From: a virus
Taxonomy: Duplodnaviria; Heunggongvirae; Uroviricota; Caudoviricetes
Length of the DNA stretch: 11,321 bases
IMG/VR virus record: IMGVR_UViG_2700989272_000002
Coordinates: 1 to 11,321 of that record
Strand: one strand, 5' to 3'
Numbering within the stretch: position 1 is the first letter of the stretch; each line of letters starts with the position of its first letter. The notes beneath the pieces were generated by a model. It had not been told where the DNA came from and made no database searches. It worked only from the letters and a program-made list of their open reading frames with translations. The position numbers were made by a program, and so were the translations under genes. This document shows, one piece after another, positions 860-10,315 of the stretch.

Positions 860-3800
860 TCAATGTTCGCTTCCTGTTAACTGCCGGACAAGTGCAACCA
901 GTTCGCTTACCTGATTTTCCAGAGTGCTGATCCGGGTGCCTGCTGTTGCCAGATTTTGACGTAGCGTTGTGTTTTCCTCTTCCAGCGCGGTAACGCGATC
1001 ATCTGTTTCACGGGCGACCTGAACAAGTAAACCCGTCACGGCGGAGTAGTCAACATTAAGATAGCGAGTTTCTTCGCGTAGCTCGTTGCCGTCAACGGTC
1101 GGACCTTGCAACTCTTCACCATAATGAGTAAACGATCCCACAGCTTCTGGTATCGCCTCCATTACTTCCTGTGCAATAACGCCAGCATAAGGCATCCCGT
1201 TTTCCCTGAGCGTGTAGGTGTATCCGTTCATTTTACGGATTGCTTTCGTCGCGTCGCTGATAACGAGAATATCGTCTTTAAGGTCGCGGTCTGATGACTG
1301 ATTCAGCGTTGTGCAATTAATAGCGCCATTTACATCAAACAACTGGCCTGCTGACGTTTTTTGCGCATAAAACAGATACGCAGCAGACGTTCCAACCTCA
1401 AAAACGTTTTGTCGATCACTTGATCCCCATACTTTTGCGGCAAATGATAGTTCTGTATTACCTAAGTTCTGTAAAACAAAACGATTTCCAGTCCCTGTTT
1501 GTTTTGTAAGAGTTAAATCAACAGTTGAGTTAACCTCATCCTTGTTGATAGTGAGCGCCTGCGCTTTAGCCCCGTTAACAGCACCTGTTTTGAGTTGAAC
1601 CGCGCCGTCATTACCATTTAACAGTATCTCAGCTCCGCTAAAGAAATTTTTTAGCGACAGCATCTTACTTACGCCGACTGATGAACCCAACGCCCACGCG
1701 AGAGAATTACCGGTGCTATCAAACCCACGTACAAAGCAATCCATTTTGCTATAGTCTGACGTGCTTCCAAGGACATCAATTCGCCCTCCGCCAGATTTTA
1801 CCGGGTTAGATGTGGTTAATGACCTGACAGCAAGATCGGTAGATGAATTGAGATCGTCTACTGTTAGTAATTTCTTCCATTCCTGAATCGTCCCTGCCTC
1901 AATTGTTCTTCCCCAAAAACCGGAATTTCGACCTCCGAACTGTACAGCGTAATTTTTACTAAATTGAACATGTATGCCGCCGAGGTTCATAGAACCAGCG
2001 GGGCCGTTTGCACCGCCTGAGATCGGTTTAAATTTTTGTATATTATCGGTGTGTTGGGCGTTCCAGTCCTGACCTGTTATCGTTGATATACCTGATCCGG
2101 TTGCAATAAAGCCAGACGCTTTAAGATTTTGCACATCAAGTCTGTCGTTTGCAAAATTATATGAAATTGCGGTGCTGGTGCTTCCGGCATCATCATAATC
2201 GCTTTTATGAATAAACCAGTTTCCACCATTAGCAATGAGAGTATAAGTAGGCGTGTTAGCCGGGCGATCTGTTTCATTAAATCTTATTGCCGGGTTAGCA
2301 CTATTTATTTGTAAAGGTTTTTCGACCGTTGATTTCAGTATCGCACTATCTACAATTAAATTACCTTCTGAGGTAAAGTCTAGATATTTTGTAGCACCAG
2401 CTGAACCACCGTATGTAAATCTTATTGTTAATCGACCTTGCTCATTTGGAAAAGTCTGAACATACATATCAGCGGCAAGGCGCACAGTGTTATCATTTGC
2501 TAACAGTCTCGTATGGAGCATCCCGCCAGTAGTGTATGCGCCAGTAGAATCACTAGTCCTATCGAGAAATAGACTATTAAGCTGAGGGCTGTTATCCCTG
2601 CCTAATCCAAGATTAGTTCTGGCACCATCAATAGTTGCCGCGCCAGTGCCACCATGAGAAACATCAAGCGGTATCCATTTTTTTTGTGTATCGCTGTAAC
2701 AACCCCATGATGAGGCGGTTAAACCCAGGCGCATGGATTTATCATGGTTATATAACCATGTTTCGCTATTCAATTGGTCAAGACGGTCCACTTCATTTTT
2801 GCGAGCGTGGCGTGTCCATTGCGGGCCTATTGTCGGACTCCAGCGATAGGTATAAAGCGAGCGAGTAGTCCATCCCTGAAATACACCTGTATACGCTGGT
2901 GTTCCATCTACCTGACTAATAAAACCAGTAAGATTACCTTCGCCTGATGCAATAGACGGAAAACCTGTTGCGGAAGCAAAAATGCGCATAAAGCCAATAT
3001 AACCGGATGGATCACCGGAAATATCAGGACAATTGCGCGGTGATGATCCCAAACCGATGTTAGCACCAACAATACCCTGAGCATGGTTGCGATAATTAAG
3101 TGCGTCCGCCGCAGATTTCGCCGCGTTTGTTTCACTGGATTTAGCATTAGTTTCGCTGGCTTTAGCGTTTGTTTCGCTGCTCTTTGCTGCTGCCTCGCTA
3201 TTTTTCGCGTTGGTTTCTGATTTTTTGGCGGCTGTCGCGGAGTTTGCCGATGCAGTTTGTGAGTCTGCTGCCGCCTGTGCGCTGTTATCCGCATTCGTCT
3301 CAGACGTTTTTGCGGCCTTCGCGGAATTTCCTGCCGCCGTTGCCGAGGAAGCTGCGCTACTGGCGCTCAAGGATGCGTTCGTTTCTGATGATTTCGCTGC
3401 CTCTTTTGAGGCCGCCGCATCCCGGGCTGAGGTGGCAGCTTCTGACGCTTTCGTGGTCGCGGTGGATGCAGAAGTGGCGGCTGATTGTTCTGACGTTTTC
3501 GCCGCACCGGCACTGGTAGCTGCCACGCTTTTTGAGGACTCTGCAGCGGCAGCACTTTTTGAGGCTTCAGTGGCCTTTGTTGATGCCGTTCCTGCGCTGG
3601 AAGACGCTGACTGAGCCGACGAAGCGGCCTGTCCGGCTGACGTGCTGGCTGCACGTGCTGAGCCTGTAGCATCAGTCGCATGGGTTGCCGCCTCACGGGC
3701 TGATGTGCCGGCATCGCTGGCTGACTTCTTCGCGGCTGCCGTGTCCTGTGCCACTGCGGACGCGTTACGCGCCACCTCTTCCACCATCAGTTCAAAGCGG

Positions 3801-4111
3801 CGCAGTGCCTCCGGACGGGCATCATCCTCCGTCATGGCACCGAGAAAATCATTCAGCGTACCCGGTTGTGAGTCTTCATACACGGTGATGGTCCCGGCAT
3901 GCGATGGCGGGAAGCCTTCCACCAACAGAATAACGCTGTACTGACCGTACTCAACGTCCATGCTGTAACGCCCTGCTTCATCCGGATTTTCAGATGCCAC
4001 CGTGTTCACCACCACCGTGGTGCTGTTACGTTTTGCTTTCAGCTGGATTGTGCAGTTCTGTACCGGTTTACCTGCACCGTCTTTCAGTACACCTGAAATC
4101 TTTACTGCCAT
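860..4111 (-). CDS. stf: side tail fiber protein (lambda Stf-like N-terminus; Ala/Ser/Thr-rich repeat section; long distal region; C-terminal intramolecular-chaperone-like domain)
   Basis: Minus-strand ORF of 1085 codons. The N-terminus MAVKISGVLKDGAGKPVQNCTIQLKA... matches my recollection of lambda Stf. The ORF track starts at 4117, but that codon is GTG; the first ATG is at 4111 and gives the MAVKISG start, so I call the start there. Stop is TGA at 860-862. It sits directly after lom, as stf does in lambda. Confidence 0.85.
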   Translation of the reverse strand: MAVKISGVLKDGAGKPVQNCTIQLKAKRNSTTVVVNTVASENPDEAGRYSMDVEYGQYSVILLVEGFPPSHAGTITVYEDSQPGTLNDFLGAMTEDDARPEALRRFELMVEEVARNASAVAQDTAAAKKSASDAGTSAREAATHATDATGSARAASTSAGQAASSAQSASSSAGTASTKATEASKSAAAAESSKSVAATSAGAAKTSEQSAATSASTATTKASEAATSARDAAASKEAAKSSETNASLSASSAASSATAAGNSAKAAKTSETNADNSAQAAADSQTASANSATAAKKSETNAKNSEAAAKSSETNAKASETNAKSSETNAAKSAADALNYRNHAQGIVGANIGLGSSPRNCPDISGDPSGYIGFMRIFASATGFPSIASGEGNLTGFISQVDGTPAYTGVFQGWTTRSLYTYRWSPTIGPQWTRHARKNEVDRLDQLNSETWLYNHDKSMRLGLTASSWGCYSDTQKKWIPLDVSHGGTGAATIDGARTNLGLGRDNSPQLNSLFLDRTSDSTGAYTTGGMLHTRLLANDNTVRLAADMYVQTFPNEQGRLTIRFTYGGSAGATKYLDFTSEGNLIVDSAILKSTVEKPLQINSANPAIRFNETDRPANTPTYTLIANGGNWFIHKSDYDDAGSTSTAISYNFANDRLDVQNLKASGFIATGSGISTITGQDWNAQHTDNIQKFKPISGGANGPAGSMNLGGIHVQFSKNYAVQFGGRNSGFWGRTIEAGTIQEWKKLLTVDDLNSSTDLAVRSLTTSNPVKSGGGRIDVLGSTSDYSKMDCFVRGFDSTGNSLAWALGSSVGVSKMLSLKNFFSGAEILLNGNDGAVQLKTGAVNGAKAQALTINKDEVNSTVDLTLTKQTGTGNRFVLQNLGNTELSFAAKVWGSSDRQNVFEVGTSAAYLFYAQKTSAGQLFDVNGAINCTTLNQSSDRDLKDDILVISDATKAIRKMNGYTYTLRENGMPYAGVIAQEVMEAIPEAVGSFTHYGEELQGPTVDGNELREETRYLNVDYSAVTGLLVQVARETDDRVTALEEENTTLRQNLATAGTRISTLENQVSELVALVRQLTGSEH
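3119..3229 (-). repeat. about five tandem 21-nt repeats inside stf encoding SETNAK-type heptapeptides
   Basis: The motifs gtttc and tttagc/ctttgc/tttcgc recur at a 21-nt period (for example gtttc at 3129, 3150, 3171). The protein reads KKSETNAKNSEAAAKSSETNAKASETNAKSSETNAAK. They lie within a longer Ala/Ser/Thr-rich low-complexity region at about 3104-3766. Confidence 0.7.
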
Positions 4112-4120
4112 ATTCACCCC

Positions 4121-4175: not shown

Positions 4176-4775
4176 TCAGAACTTATAACCGACACCCACG
4201 ATGAAACCGTCAGTGCGCCAGTCGCCACTGCCGGAGCCTTCATAAGCAATATCAATGGCCACCGATTCGGTCGGGTTAAACTGCACGCCAGCTCCCCACG
4301 CCAGAGACGTGTTGCTGTGGCGACCGTCATCACTTCCGGTCAGCACATCGTGCGTTTTCCCCTTGTTGTCAGTTACGCGGAGATAATCCCCGGAGAAAGT
4401 CGACACACGGCTGTAAGCCACACCCGCCATCGCATACGCGCTGAACCATTCATTCACGCGTACAGACGGCCCCGCCATCACGCTGAACCAGCGGTTACGT
4501 AAGGAATCTTCATGCCAGCGGGTATCGCTGTAACGGGTCAGCTGGCGATTCTTGTCTCCTGCATAGCTGAATGACGTCACCAGCCCTAGTGTGTCCGTAA
4601 ACTCATAACGGTATTTCACGTTAATCCCGTTCAGATCATCGCTGCCGGGAACGTTCGTCGAGGCATGAAGATAGCCCGCGCTCAGCGTGGACTGATGTTC
4701 AGACGCCCATGCAGGCGCACCGGATACGGCCAGACAGATGGCTGCGGACAAAATGGCGGCATAAAGTTTACGCAT
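4176..4775 (-). CDS. lom: outer membrane beta-barrel protein Lom (Ail/Lom/PagC/OmpX family), phage moron
   Basis: 199-aa ORF with a signal-peptide-like N-terminus (MRKLYAAILSAAICLAVSGAPAWA). Its C-terminus, ...VDIAYEGSGSGDWRTDGFIVGVGYKF, matches my recollection of lambda Lom. A GAGAGG Shine-Dalgarno-like motif sits about 8 nt before the ATG. It occupies the lambda position between J and stf. Confidence 0.9.
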   Translation of the reverse strand: MRKLYAAILSAAICLAVSGAPAWASEHQSTLSAGYLHASTNVPGSDDLNGINVKYRYEFTDTLGLVTSFSYAGDKNRQLTRYSDTRWHEDSLRNRWFSVMAGPSVRVNEWFSAYAMAGVAYSRVSTFSGDYLRVTDNKGKTHDVLTGSDDGRHSNTSLAWGAGVQFNPTESVAIDIAYEGSGSGDWRTDGFIVGVGYKF

Positions 4776-4843: not shown

Positions 4844-7800
4844 TCAGCTAATCGTGATACCTGCTGTGGATTTCTTCATCACCACAACCAGCAAATCGCT
4901 GATACTGGCTGTGGGATACCAGTCATTTACCAGCCACGCTGATACCGAAAACTCCAGCGTCATGTGACCGCGACCAGCAGGCATATCAATAACACCTGTA
5001 TAAACCAGCGTATTATCCAGCGCGGTACGGTTATAAATTTCAGCACCGTTTTTCTTCACTATCAGGCGGCATGACGAATAAATATCGTTATTCTCCCGCT
5101 CATGTTTAGCGCCACGAAACGCCACCGCGGGAATAACAATCTGCCGGTCAAACGGCTGATCGTCATAAACCCTGACGGTAATGGTCCCTGATGGCCACCG
5201 CTCCGGTGCACGGGAGTCCCGGGGGAAAGCTTTGCCCACTGTTTTAACGAGATCGCCTTCAATCTGGTTCGCGGACAGTTTTCCCAGAACCCGACAGTTC
5301 TCGTTAATCGTGACATTGTTGAGCGTCCCGGCGTTCGCATTCACACTGCCACTGATATCCGCATTTTTAGCGGTCAGCTTTCCGTCCGGTGTCAGGGAAA
5401 ATACCGGTGGATTTCCACCACTGGTAATGGTGGGGGCCGTCAGGCGTTTGAGGAACACGTCGTTCATGAATATCTGGTTGCCCTGCGCCACAAACATCGG
5501 CGTTTCATTCCCGTTTGCCGGGTCAATAAACGCGATACGATTGGCGGCAACCAGAAACTGGCTCAGTTTGCCTTCCTCTGTATCCTCCATGCTGAGGCCA
5601 AGCCCCGCGACATAATGCTTACCGTCTTCGGTCTGCTCAATTTTGACGCCCCACATGGCGTTCCATTTATCGTTAGCGTCCTTCCACTCTTTCGAAAACT
5701 CCTCCAGTCTGCTGGCGTTATCCTCCGTCAGCTCGACTTTTTCCAGCAACTCCTTGCCGAGATGGGATTCGGTTATCTTGCCTTTGAAAAAATCCAGGTA
5801 ACCTTCCGCATCATCGCTCGCCCGACCGACGGCCTCCACAAATGCCGATTTGCCAACGGTGTTCACACTGCGAACGTAAAAATAATAATCATGGCCCGGT
5901 TTGATATTGATACTGGCGGCTATCCAGTACAGCCCCGTGCCAAGATAGCGGGCTGTGGTTTCAACCTGCCTGATATCGGTAATCCGCTTTTCCGAGAACC
6001 AGAACTCAAACTGTACCGTCGGATCATAAACCGCAAGATGCGGCGTGGCGGTTATCTGAAAATAGCCCGGCGTCAGCTCAATCCGCGACGGTGCTGCCGG
6101 TGCGGCGATCCGGAACGATACCGATGCCGGATCGCCCTGCTGTCCCCACGCATTTACCGCCCGGACCGTCAGCCTGTAGTTCCCCAGCGCCAGTTGCGTG
6201 AAGCGGTATGTGGTTTCCGTCGTCCTGGCCGTGCTGACCAGCCGCTCACTGCCGTCATCCGCTGCCACGGTCAGGCGAAGCATAAAGCTCACGCCCTTCA
6301 CCACCTTCGGCGTGTCCCATCGCGCCAGCACCTGATATTCCCCGCTGTCTGCGGTGACTTCGGCGGTCAGATGCTGCACTGCTGGCGGCGTGACACCATT
6401 CACCGTGCCGCTCTGGTCACCGTCAAAGTGCGCCCCGTTATCCACGATGGCTTCTTTCTCCGGTACATGCTGCACGGCAGTGATGGCATACGTGCCGTCG
6501 TCGTTCTCACGGATACTCACACAGCGGAACAGGCGCTGGCGCAGCGTCGGCAGCTTCAGCCCCCACACGCTGTACTCGGCAACGCCGTCAGGAACCCGGC
6601 TCACTTTCACCTTCACGCCGTCGGTGACGGACTGGACCTCCACGCTGACCGGATTGCCACTTCCGTCAACCAGGCTTATCAGCGTGGTGCCGGAGGATGG
6701 CAGCGTGATTTCACGGTCGAGCGTCAGCGTCCGGGTCTGGCTGTTCACCGCCAGCACGCGCCCGCCGGTGCTGATACCGGCATAGTCATCATCGCAGATT
6801 TCAATGACATCGCCCGGTACATGGCGAAGCCCTTCTGCGCCGACGCTGAAATCCACGGTCTGCGTCTCCAGCAGTTCTGTTTTAATCAGCCACAGCCCGG
6901 CGCGGTGCGCCTGCCCCCGACTGGTACAGCCAAACGCATCCATCTTCGTGACGTTACGACCGTAACGGGCAATGGCCTGCGAGTCCTCCACAAGCTCTGT
7001 TGCCGTCTCCCAGCCGTTATCCGGGTCAATCCAGTTCACTTCAACGGCATTATGGCGGTCTTTCAGGGCGCTGAAGCTGTAGCGGAATGGTGCGCCATCA
7101 TCCGGCATCACCACATTACTGCGGTTATAGGTCCACACCTTATCTGATGGTCGGTCCTGCACGAACGTCAGCGTCTGCCCGTTCCATACCGGCATACAGC
7201 GCATCGCCGAGCAGAAATCACTGAGCACATCCCACGCCTTGCGCTGTGTGGTCAGGTACGCATTACAGGTGATGCGCGGCTCCGTGCCGCCAAAGCCGTC
7301 CGGCACCGACTGGTCGCAGTACTGGCCGATGACATACAGCGCCCATTTATCCACATCCGCCGCACCAAGACGTTTCCCCATGCCGTAGCGCGGATGGGTC
7401 AGCATATCCCACAGACACCAGGCCATGTTGTTGCTGTATGCCGGTTTAAACGTTCCGTCCCAGATACCGCTGTATTGCCGCGTCTGCGGGTTATAATTCG
7501 ACGGCACCTGCAGAATACGCCCGCGAAGATGATAATTACGGCTCACCTGCTGGCTGCCGAACTGCTCCGAGTCCACCTGCACGCCGACCAGTGCCGTGTT
7601 CGGGTAGCACTGTTTCACATCGATAATTTCGGTGTATGACGACCAGAGCGTTTTGTTCTGCAGCTGGTCTGTGGTGCTGTCCGGCGTCATCCTGCGCATC
7701 CGGATATTAAACGGGCGCGGCGGCAGGTTATCCACCACCACCGAGGCCAGATACTGTGAAGTGGTTTTACCCTTAATGGTGATGTCTTTTTCCGTCACCC

Positions 7801-8239
7801 AGCCACCGTTACGTTGTATCTGAACCAGCAGGCGGACTTCCGATGGATTCCTGTCCCCCTTTGAGGTGGTTTCCACCAGTGCCTGCACACCGAAGGTAAA
7901 ACGCAGTCGGTCAATGTTTGCCGACGTGATGGTCCGGGTGATCGGCGTGTCGTATTTCACTTCCGTACCCAGCACCGTCTCGGAGCCGGAGGATTCAAAT
8001 CCCTCCGGCGGAGTCTGCTCCTGCTCACCAGCCCGGAACACCACCGTGACACCGGCGATGTTGGTATTCCCCTCACTGTCCAGCACCGGCGTACTGTTCA
8101 GCAGTACGCTTTTTAATCCATCCACCGGACCTTCAATCGGCCCTTCACTGATGGCGTCTATCACGCTCAGCATCTGGGATGATTTCAGGTTGTCCTTCGC
8201 TTCGCGCGGGGTATGCCCCTTACTGCTGCCTTTACCCAT
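4844..8239 (-). CDS. J: tail tip / central tail fiber protein J (host specificity protein)
   Basis: 1131-aa ORF. The N-terminus [20 protein letters not shown]... and most of the length match my recollection of lambda gpJ (1132 aa). A GAGGA Shine-Dalgarno-like motif immediately precedes the ATG. Stop is TGA at 4844-4846. The last ~150 residues look different from lambda. Confidence 0.95.
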
Positions 8240-8299: not shown

Positions 8300-8971
8300 T
8301 CAGCGACCAATCACCACAACCTGACCACCGTCCCCTTCGTCTGCCGTGCTGATTTCCTGAGATACCACCCGCGACCCCACGCGCATTTCACCGTACAGAA
8401 CGGGCAGAACATTGCCCTGGGCAACCATGTTATCCAGTGAGGAGAAATACGTGTTTTGTTTGCCGTTATCCGTTGTCTGTGTACGGGGAGTTCTGGCTTT
8501 CGGTGCCAGCATCTGCGCCACACCACCAAGTACCATACTGGCACCGAGAGAAAACAGGATGCCGGTCATACCACCGGCCCCAATGGCTGCCCCCCATGCT
8601 GCAAGGGTGGCTCCGGCGGTAAAGAATGATCCGGCAATGGCGGCTGCTCCCAGGACAATCTGGAATACGCCCCCTGACTTGGCCCCGGCGACTCTGGGAA
8701 CAATATGAATCACAGCGCCGTCAGGCAGAACCTCATGTAACTGCGCCGTCAATCCGGACGTGCTGACATCCCGCCCGGCAATCCGTACCTGATACCAGCC
8801 GTCGCTCAGTTTCTGACGAAACGCCGGGTTCTGCATGGCCAGCGCCCGGATGGCTTCAGCCCCCGTTTTCACACGAAGGTCGATGCGGCGGCCAAATCGT
8901 TGTAAATCCCCGTAAAGGCAGATGCGCGCCATGCCCGGTGACGCCAGAGGGAGTGTGTGCGTCGCTGCCAT
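8300..8971 (-). CDS. I: tail tip assembly protein I
   Basis: 223-aa ORF, MAATHTLPLASPGMARICLYGDLQRFGRRIDLRVKTGAEAIRALA..., matching my recollection of lambda gpI (223 aa). Its 5' end overlaps the 3' end of K by about 100 nt in another frame, as in lambda. Confidence 0.9.
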   Translation of the reverse strand: MAATHTLPLASPGMARICLYGDLQRFGRRIDLRVKTGAEAIRALAMQNPAFRQKLSDGWYQVRIAGRDVSTSGLTAQLHEVLPDGAVIHIVPRVAGAKSGGVFQIVLGAAAIAGSFFTAGATLAAWGAAIGAGGMTGILFSLGASMVLGGVAQMLAPKARTPRTQTTDNGKQNTYFSSLDNMVAQGNVLPVLYGEMRVGSRVVSQEISTADEGDGGQVVVIGR

Positions 8972-9612
8972 TTGTCGGTATACCTCTCTCGTTTGCTCAG
9001 TTGTTCAGGAATATGGTGCAGCAGCTCGCCGTCACCACAGTAAATGGCGGCATGATTCGGCACCGATGAACCAAAACAGCACAGCAGCACATCGCCCGGT
9101 TGTGCTGATGACAACGGCACCTGATACAGCCCTGTGGCCTCCAGATTATCCAGATAGAGATTCTGACCGTGACGCCACCAGTCATCCCCGCGATGAAAAT
9201 TCGGCATCTCAATCCCCGCCAGATGATAAGCATCCCGGAACAGCGTGTAACAGTCCGTCACCCCGTGCTCAAAGCGCCGCCCGGTGAGATGCGGCACACA
9301 GCGGAACTTATGAATCGCCCCCCGGCAGACCAGCAACCACGGCAAATCACTCTGCACCTGCAGCCGCCGGTCAGCCTCACTCAGCCAGGGCAGACCACCG
9401 GGGTGGCTGTGGACCAGCGCCACAATCTCACCCTGCATTTCTGCCTGCAGCCAGTCCTCCGGAGCCATCCGGAAATAATCCTCCGGCTCACCGGAAATAT
9501 TCACGCAGGGAAAATATCTTTCCCCCTCCGGCGTTCTCACCACGAAGCCGCACGACTCCGCTGGCGCACATCGCCGGGCGTGCGCCAGAATCGCTGATTC
9601 TGTCTCTGTCAT
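8869..9612 (-). CDS. K: tail tip assembly protein K (JAB/MPN-type metalloprotease motif plus NlpC/P60-like C-terminal half)
   Basis: The ORF contains a JAMM-type motif, HSHPGGLPWLSEAD (H-x-H-x7-S-x2-D), and downstream Cys/His residues typical of NlpC/P60 (..DCYTLF.., ..NHAAIY.., ..HHIPE). I call the start at the ATG at 9610-9612 (MTETESAIL...), 4 nt after the L stop. The lambda-annotated 199-aa form would start at the internal ATG at 9466-9468 (MAPEDW...). The track ORF runs to 9687, but that part overlaps L. Confidence 0.8.
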   Translation of the reverse strand: MTETESAILAHARRCAPAESCGFVVRTPEGERYFPCVNISGEPEDYFRMAPEDWLQAEMQGEIVALVHSHPGGLPWLSEADRRLQVQSDLPWLLVCRGAIHKFRCVPHLTGRRFEHGVTDCYTLFRDAYHLAGIEMPNFHRGDDWWRHGQNLYLDNLEATGLYQVPLSSAQPGDVLLCCFGSSVPNHAAIYCGDGELLHHIPEQLSKRERYTDKWQRRTHSLWRHRAWRASAFTGIYNDLAAASTFV

Positions 9613-9616
9613 GGGA

Positions 9617-10315
9617 TTACTGCGAAAGTTTGTTAATGGAAAGGAAGCCGCCAAAGTTGCCGACGTTATTGCGAAACTTACAGCCACTCAGGCATTTGCT
9701 GCATTTATCCTTCGTGATATCGGACGTTGGCTGGTCATATTCATCCGCGACCGCCGGACCGTGATAACCGCACTCATCGCCGCGATAGGTCCAGGTGCAG
9801 GTGTTGGCCAGCATGATACGTCCCGGAAAAACAGCGCCGTCCGTTTCCGTCGGCGTGGACAGTACAAAAGAGGCACTCACCGCGCTCAGTTCGCTGCACT
9901 GCTCAATGCGCCAGCGGCTGATCACCTCCTGCTCCGGATCGGCGTCGCTGTTTCCGTTGACGAAGTTCACCGCATCCAGAAAACGGGCGTAAACCTTACG
10001 CCGGACCACCGTTCCGCCGACCAGACTCTGCAGATCTTCCGCCATCCCGGTGACCATACCGTACAGGTTAGAAACCGTCAGCGTGGGGCGCGTACTGGTG
10101 CCTTTGCCATTCAGTTCAAAACCACTCCCCTGAATGGGATACGGCTGATACTGTCGCCCCTGCCAGGTGACCGGCTCACCTTTTTCGTTCTGCTCATTAC
10201 AGAAAAAATAACGTTCTCCACCGACCTCTGTCAGGTCGATTTCCCAGAGCACCACGCTGGCCGACTGCTCCGCACGGGTGCATTCATTCAGTGTTTCCTG
10301 CCGGATATCCTGCAT
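9617..10315 (-). CDS. L: tail tip protein L (Cys-rich C-terminus consistent with the reported Fe-S cluster site)
   Basis: 232-aa ORF, MQDIRQETLNECTRAEQSASVVLWEIDLTEVGGERYFFCNEQ..., matching my recollection of lambda gpL (232 aa). The C-terminal ~60 aa carry five Cys (..CTWTYRGDECGYHG..KDKCSKCLSGCKF..). The start ATG shares one base with the M stop codon. Confidence 0.9.
   Translation of the reverse strand: MQDIRQETLNECTRAEQSASVVLWEIDLTEVGGERYFFCNEQNEKGEPVTWQGRQYQPYPIQGSGFELNGKGTSTRPTLTVSNLYGMVTGMAEDLQSLVGGTVVRRKVYARFLDAVNFVNGNSDADPEQEVISRWRIEQCSELSAVSASFVLSTPTETDGAVFPGRIMLANTCTWTYRGDECGYHGPAVADEYDQPTSDITKDKCSKCLSGCKFRNNVGNFGGFLSINKLSQ

Follow-up and report, generated by a model that had tools for sequence, protein, structure and literature searches.

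The K protein of phage lambda (gpK; NP_040598, annotated with 199 aa) is needed for tail assembly and is absent from the mature virion (PMC10721106, PMC12617516), where mass spectrometry did not find it (PMC10721106). It combines a JAB domain with an NlpC/P60 domain and was predicted in 2006 to process the I protein (PMC1779556), and a 2025 conference report from the Davidson group describes a deubiquitinase-like protease action of gpK on gpI (PMC12908700). Taken together, the lambda literature suggests that the JAB domain of K would cut the ubiquitin-like domain off the N-terminus of I while the tail tip is assembled. Some phages carry versions of K that have only the NlpC/P60 domain (PMC1779556).

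The motif of JAMM metalloproteases has been defined as E-x(n)-H-S/T-H-x7-S-x2-D (PMC300881). Among the closest described enzymes are PfJAMM1 of P. furiosus (5lda/5ld9), DSY2949 (2kks) and AfJAMM of A. fulgidus, which consist of a single JAMM domain of ~110-130 residues with the same E...HxH...S..D arrangement as K (PMC300881); in 5lda, JAMM1 is bound to the ubiquitin-like SAMP2, which parallels the proposed action of K on the ubiquitin-like domain of I. K differs from these minimal JAMMs, with which it shares 22-27% identity, in being fused to a C-terminal NlpC/P60 domain and in its role in phage tail assembly. The eukaryotic JAMM isopeptidases Rpn11 and CSN5 have the catalytic motif and core fold in common with K but, unlike K, contain insertions, belong to large complexes and cleave isopeptide bonds, whereas the proposed target of K is a linear fusion within gpI. 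The C-terminal domain of K resembles E. coli MepS/Spr (8xup; PF00877) in its fold and in its Cys-His-His triad, and this domain is unaffected by the question of where K starts.

The stretch of DNA analysed here (the window, 11,321 nucleotides) contains a block of tail tip genes from a lambda-like prophage on the minus strand, which runs from the end of H through M, L, K, I, J and a lom-like gene to the side tail fibre, as read from the list of open reading frames (ORFs):

10644-10315, minus strand: M (ORF list)
9617-10315, minus strand: L, minor tail protein (232-aa ORF; annotations in related records)
9617..9619, minus strand: stop codon TAA of L (end of the ORF)
8869..9612, minus strand: full-length K, tail tip assembly protein with JAB/JAMM and NlpC/P60 domains (ORF; PF14464 and PF00877)
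8300-8971, minus strand: I, ubiquitin-like tail assembly protein (ORF; PF06805 match)
4844-8239, minus strand: J (ORF list)
4176-4775 of the window: lom-like gene

The window and lambda share the L-K-I-J synteny and the JAB plus NlpC/P60 architecture of K, and the segment is 96% identical to lambda. K lies between the L and I genes and upstream of J, both in the window and in related records, which is the position characteristic of the lambda-type TAPK. Among phage records, PhiR70_1 (98.9%) and phage 21 (98.3%) come closest. Of 5426 complete E. coli genomes, 4375 contain segments with at least 80% nucleotide identity (median, 3 copies in those that have any); the tail segment of the window is thus a very common element. 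On the 3' side of the lom-like gene, an ORF of 1085 aa (860-4117, minus strand) occupies the side tail fibre position and appears unbroken, unlike the frameshifted stf of laboratory lambda.

The first-pass annotation had proposed that K starts 48 codons upstream of the start annotated in lambda, and the ORF agrees with it exactly: the K frame runs without interruption from the ATG at 9612-9610, through the internal ATG, to the TGA at 8871-8869, giving 247 codons and a 744-nt coding sequence. Only 4 nt (TCCC) separate the upstream ATG from the stop codon of L (TAA, 9619-9617). The positions that matter for the start, all on the minus strand, are as follows:

9610..9612, minus strand: proposed true start ATG of K, 4 nt past the L stop, with no Shine-Dalgarno (SD) sequence
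9469..9612, minus strand: 48-codon extension of K, residues 1-48 (profile match, AlphaFold2 model, dN/dS)
9319..9603, minus strand: Prok-JAB domain (PF14464), residues 4-98 (Pfam match)
9556..9558, minus strand: Glu19 codon (segment PAESCG), encoding the catalytic Glu that lies upstream in the JAMM motif (invariant in 135/135)
9480..9484, minus strand: internal GGAGG within codons Glu42-Pro43-Glu44, 11 nt before the internal ATG
9478, minus strand: window equivalent of the base missing in the lambda reference (GGAGGC[G]TATTT); the window reads GGAGGATTATTT
9466..9468, minus strand: internal ATG, codon 49 (Met49), aligned with the annotated lambda K start (NC_001416 14276)
9370..9411, minus strand: JAMM zinc-site motif H68-S-H70-x7-S78-x2-D81 (HSHPGGLPWLSEAD; translation, invariant residues)
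8941..9282, minus strand: NlpC/P60 (PF00877) papain-like peptidase domain, residues 111-224 (Pfam; Cys121, His187 and His199 invariant)
Peptide sequence expected from the long form: MTQTESAILAHAR...

We conclude, with a probability of roughly 90%, that K is a single 247-residue protein which starts at the ATG at 9612-9610 and is predicted to contain complete JAMM/JAB and NlpC/P60 domains, and that the 199-aa form would be an artefact. An open stretch of 48 codons is expected by chance with a probability of about 0.1, (61/64)^48, and is weak evidence alone. The extension is nevertheless open far beyond chance, because it matches Prok-JAB (E=3e-5) and is under frame-specific purifying selection.

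The domain profiles distinguish the two forms clearly. Against Prok-JAB, which has a curated cut-off of 25 bits, the 247-aa K scored 53 bits, with residues 4-98 aligned to profile positions 4-103 of 114. The 199-aa K matched only profile positions 63-103 and, at 22.8 bits, stayed below the cut-off, whereas the 48-residue extension alone matched profile positions 3-51 (24.3 bits). The expectation that the short form would truncate the domain was therefore borne out. PF00877 was matched equally by both forms, over the whole profile (positions 1-105 of 105) and with 47 bits, where the cut-off is 23. We consider this part of K to be a predicted cysteine peptidase domain, with Cys121, His187 and His199 as its putative Cys-His-His triad.

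As had been noticed before, the sequence HSHPGGLPWLSEAD (residues 68-81, nt 9411-9370) lies just after the internal Met, and an acidic residue required by the JAB fold had been expected upstream of it. This residue was found in the extension as Glu19, so that the full motif of K reads Glu19 ... His68-Ser69-His70-PGGLPWL-Ser78-EA-Asp81. Glu19, H68, S69, H70, S78 and D81, as well as the Cys121, His187 and His199 of the C-terminal domain, are invariant in all 135 unique homologues. PDB 2kks aligns with residues 7-106 of K, PxExCG segment included, and the Glu of its PNEACG pairs with Glu19 in the PAESCG of K.

The strands that had been anticipated in the extension were also seen in an AlphaFold2 model of K, which was built on 20 homologues and is of moderate overall confidence (mean pLDDT 69), lower in the NlpC/P60 part than in the N-terminal domain. 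For residues 1-100, the mean pLDDT of 10-residue blocks ranged from 57 to 92. The predicted secondary structure comprises helices 3-15, 51-60 and 79-88 and strands 20-27, 30-35, 62-70, 92-96 and 99-103, and the elements within the extension (helix 3-15, strands 20-27 and 30-35) have pLDDT 82-92. An N-terminal helix together with a central beta sheet, which is a feature of the MPN fold, is thus present in the predicted model. In Foldseek searches the top matches of the model were P. furiosus JAMM1 (5lda/5ld9), Rpn11 and CSN5, with E=6e-5 and a target TM-score of 0.63 for 5lda, and the C-terminal half matched NlpC/P60 peptidases of the MepS type. Residues ~1-105 are therefore predicted to form a complete minimal JAMM/JAB zinc metalloprotease domain with Glu19, His68, His70, Ser78 and Asp81. 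Without the first 48 residues, which supply helix 1, strands 1 and 2 and the catalytic Glu, a K begun at Met49 would have no functional JAB domain. The predicted domain boundary and catalytic residues of K thus require the long start.

Phage records, IMG/VR and GTDB species genomes together provided 170 loci, from which 135 unique full-length K coding sequences with 46-100% protein identity were obtained. The scan of viral contigs gave only loci at least 96% identical, too similar for an analysis of divergence, and the diverged set came from the scan of genome contigs. All homologues in the 46-77% identity range carry an ATG between relative codons -1 and +5, and in several of them, e.g., L128, L149, L130 and L124, this upstream ATG is the sole plausible start in the first 70 codons. 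Codon 49 is Met in 93 of the 135 unique sequences and Ile, Leu or Val (ATC, ATT, ATA, CTG, GTT) in the remaining 42, and a start-type codon occupies this position in only 4 of the 44 homologues below 90% identity. A K homologue was found in 1743 phage records, 1720 of which cover at least 80% of the 247-aa query. When 60 of these records were sampled (HK97, T1-like, Klebsiella, Burkholderia, Ralstonia, Vibrio and Rhizobium phages), 59 of the alignments began within query residues 1-11 and the remaining one at residue 19.

The upstream codons are also under coding constraint, as the earlier proposal would predict. For residues 8-48, dN/dS was 0.21 in the K frame versus 1.29 and 1.53 in the shifted frames. 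Pooled over 475 pairs, it was 0.33 for residues 2-48, 0.17 for residues 50-106 and 0.16 for residues 107-247; the higher value of the extension (0.33 against about 0.17) is partly due to the variable residues 2-7. The idea that the extension is a separate small gene was ruled out, since it is in frame with the remaining JAB domain in 135/135 unique homologues.

The distance between L and K is short throughout the family. A long upstream ORF, the L homologue, was recognised in 127 of the 135 unique loci, and in 126 of these 127 the distance from its stop to the K ATG is between -8 and +11 nt, with a 1-nt TGATG overlap of the two codons in 16 diverged loci. Members of the lambda group have either 5 nt or 4 nt between the two genes: lambda-type sequences read CAGTAAATCCCATG with a 5-nt gap (NC_001416 about 14125-14133), and CAGTAATCCCATG with a 4-nt gap is found in the window (9610-9621), phage 21 and PhiR70_1. 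Each spacing is frequent in this group, with 53 and 34 unique loci. This 1-nt polymorphism is intergenic and has no coding effect. In the prophages of Shigella flexneri (L109) and E. albertii (L114), no stop codon interrupts the K frame for about 90 codons ahead of the K ATG, and the protein search also returned L-K and K-I products of fusion length (311-431 aa) with PF05100 or PF06805; the probable explanation is read-through calls, or prophage copies that are frameshifted or degraded.

The initiation signals appear at first sight to favour the internal ATG. The proposed start has no Shine-Dalgarno sequence (anti-SD duplex, +0.7 kcal/mol), and the GGAGG before Met49 gives -9.5 kcal/mol. We propose that ribosomes terminating on L may re-initiate at the SD-less ATG of K by translational coupling, because the two genes are spaced by 4-5 nt here and conserved overlaps occur elsewhere in the family. 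The GGAGG is the likely reason why the 1982 annotators and gene callers picked the internal ATG. A metagenome gene caller gave a 199-aa K on a contig where the frame is open for 247 codons, and ~11,000 sequences fall into four 199-aa clusters of a protein collection, in which the listed 247-aa clusters hold several times more sequences.

The internal signals could also mean that phages of the lambda group make two products, a full-length K coupled to L and a 199-aa K' (the remaining part of the JAB domain followed by NlpC/P60) translated from Met49 via the GGAGG, as in lambda C/Nu3 or S107/S105. We regard this as improbable, although less so than the other alternatives. Besides the -9.5 kcal/mol duplex, it has in its favour that the internal ATG is present in 89 of 91 lambda-group sequences, that the SD codons are nearly invariant in this group and that NlpC/P60-only versions of K exist. 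However, the 42 sequences with Ile, Leu or Val at codon 49 include 2 inside the lambda group, the SD is absent outside it, and L114 keeps the GGAGG though its codon 49 is ATC. A spacing of 11 nt between SD and ATG is long. The GGAGG itself is explained by the conserved codons for Glu-Pro-Glu, and its conservation is not unusual in a closely related group in which 26% of codons are fully invariant. That the internal GGAGG and Met49 ATG are functional and yield an NlpC/P60-only K' whose ratio to full-length K tunes tail tip assembly would, in our view, be a rather unlikely arrangement; if true, K/K' would be another nested-gene pair in the lambda late operon.

The single 247-residue K has to be reconciled with the lambda reference (J02459/NC_001416), which annotates only residues 49-247 and in which the upstream K frame, intact in the window, is closed. 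One G is absent there at 14266/14267: the alignment shows GGAGGC-TATTT in the reference and GGAGGCGTATTT in phage 21 and others. As a result, the ATG at NC_001416 14133 opens a 76-codon ORF that reads MTQTESAILAHARRCAPAESCGFVVSTPEGERYFPCVNISGEPE and is then out of frame, and the K frame runs into a stop, TGA, seven codons ahead of the annotated ATG. The G is present in 49 of 51 lambda-type loci, which encode an intact 247-aa K. An exact match to the reference across the region was found only in J02459, its RefSeq copy, OR474059 and OR974322, and some two dozen further records, with 99% identity or more, contain one additional base. The G and the intact 247-aa ORF are found in the independently sequenced PV340536, lambda imm434, DE3, KT232076 and LC730321. 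The full-length K of PV340536 is 96% identical to that of the window, where ATT in place of the GCG T of real lambda gives Asp45 instead of Ala45. The lambda sequence notes of a commercial supplier reportedly list a G insertion at 14266.

Contigs as close to the lambda K protein as lambda itself were found in assemblies of unrelated bacteria (Neobacillus, Pseudoxanthomonas, Pseudomonas, Shewanella, Paenibacillus, Bradyrhizobium and Streptomyces-group strains; loci L091-L103, L105, L112, L113, L115, L116, L120, L123 and L139), some of them about 48.4-48.5 kb long with a coverage near 1x. They look like contamination with laboratory lambda DNA and served as independent de novo sequences of lambda. 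All contaminant contigs with the lambda-type site carry the extra G. In addition, in 454 sequencing of ATCC lambda published in 2011, 232 of 235 reads contain an extra G at reference position 14267, an insertion that was assigned to no locus (PMC3059205 Table S5). The same table lists a G deleted at reference position 138, near cos/nu1 and beyond the part covered by the window, in 36 of 37 reads, which suggests a second single-base discrepancy in the lambda reference.

As judged from these comparisons, the short lambda K annotation stems from a one-base omission in the 1982 reference, which is most likely a sequencing error: the missing G puts the first 44 codons out of frame, and the next ATG was then taken. 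This modifies the earlier proposal in one respect. The internal ATG (9468-9466) does correspond to the annotated lambda start, but the window is not lambda, and in the lambda reference the upstream frame is broken; the annotated start is thus a by-product of an error in the reference sequence rather than of a choice between two in-frame ATGs.

It is very unlikely that the missing G is a real mutation of the sequenced stock, with K made from fragments of 76 aa and 199 aa or by ribosomal frameshifting. OR474059 and OR974322 are indeed identical to the reference across the region, but OR974322 carries the reference annotation and comes from a chicken cloacal swab, which suggests a reference-guided assembly. 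Against a mutation stand the G in DE3, lambda imm434, KT232076, LC730321 and PV340536, in dozens of de novo assembled contaminant contigs and in nearly all reads of ATCC lambda. Programmed frameshifting in the lambda reference was likewise rejected, as real lambda DNA has the G.

Least tenable of all is the reading that accepts the lambda annotation as correct and takes the 48 codons upstream for a decayed remnant or untranslated spacer: the strong SD of the internal ATG, the J02459/NC_001416 annotation (copied as 600 nt into DE3 and lambda imm434, which carry the G) and the thousands of gene-caller sequences speak for it, but it would leave unexplained the frame-specific purifying selection in the extension, the invariant Glu19 and the failure of the short form at the JAB threshold, the lack of a start codon at position 49 in most distant homologues, a 148-nt non-coding gap that is anomalous beside the tight L-K juxtaposition family-wide, and a frame break that 49 of 51 lambda-type loci do not have.

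The start of gene I, which overlaps the 3' end of K by 103 nt in the window, presents the opposite annotation problem. Lambda annotates a 223-aa I from the ATG at 8971, with the same 103-nt overlap, whereas PGAP and some phage records call a 190-aa I from a GTG that overlaps the K stop (GTGA at 8872; compare loci L170, L003 and L004). The Pfam Lambda_tail_I profile is matched over positions 2-83 of 83 by the long I and over positions 26-83 only by the short I; because of this difference, the short call probably truncates the ubiquitin-like domain. A third candidate start is the ATG at 8932 (Met14, MARICLYG).

The long start of K is already known in practice. WP_032146220.1 (PGAP 'C40 family peptidase'), UMO75434 of phage 21 and XSB43581 of PhiR70_1 have the same 744-nt coding sequence, which starts 4 nt past the L stop and is 98-99.8% identical to the window at the nucleotide level; they show essentially no difference from the K described here, with the long start already annotated. 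PV340536 of lambda is also annotated with 744 nt, and most current annotations already use the long K. In the literature that we searched, no explicit statement that the lambda K annotation is truncated was found, and none for "14266"; the only trace is the line in PMC3059205 Table S5. The one useful contribution of this analysis is to connect the base missing from the reference explicitly with the truncated K annotation, a connection that was not found in the literature searched.

The value of this link is practical only, and it teaches nothing new about the biology of the phage. J02459/NC_001416, the most widely used phage reference, still gives K as 199 aa, a form in which the catalytic Glu and one third of the JAB domain are missing. 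Cloning K from the annotated start is predicted to produce a crippled enzyme, and the same pitfall applies to the design of guides and primers and to mutations at 14133-14275, which would be mapped as "intergenic". The reference would be corrected by inserting a G at 14266/14267 and starting K at 14133. Such a correction is timely, as gpK is now reported to act as a deubiquitinase-like protease on gpI.
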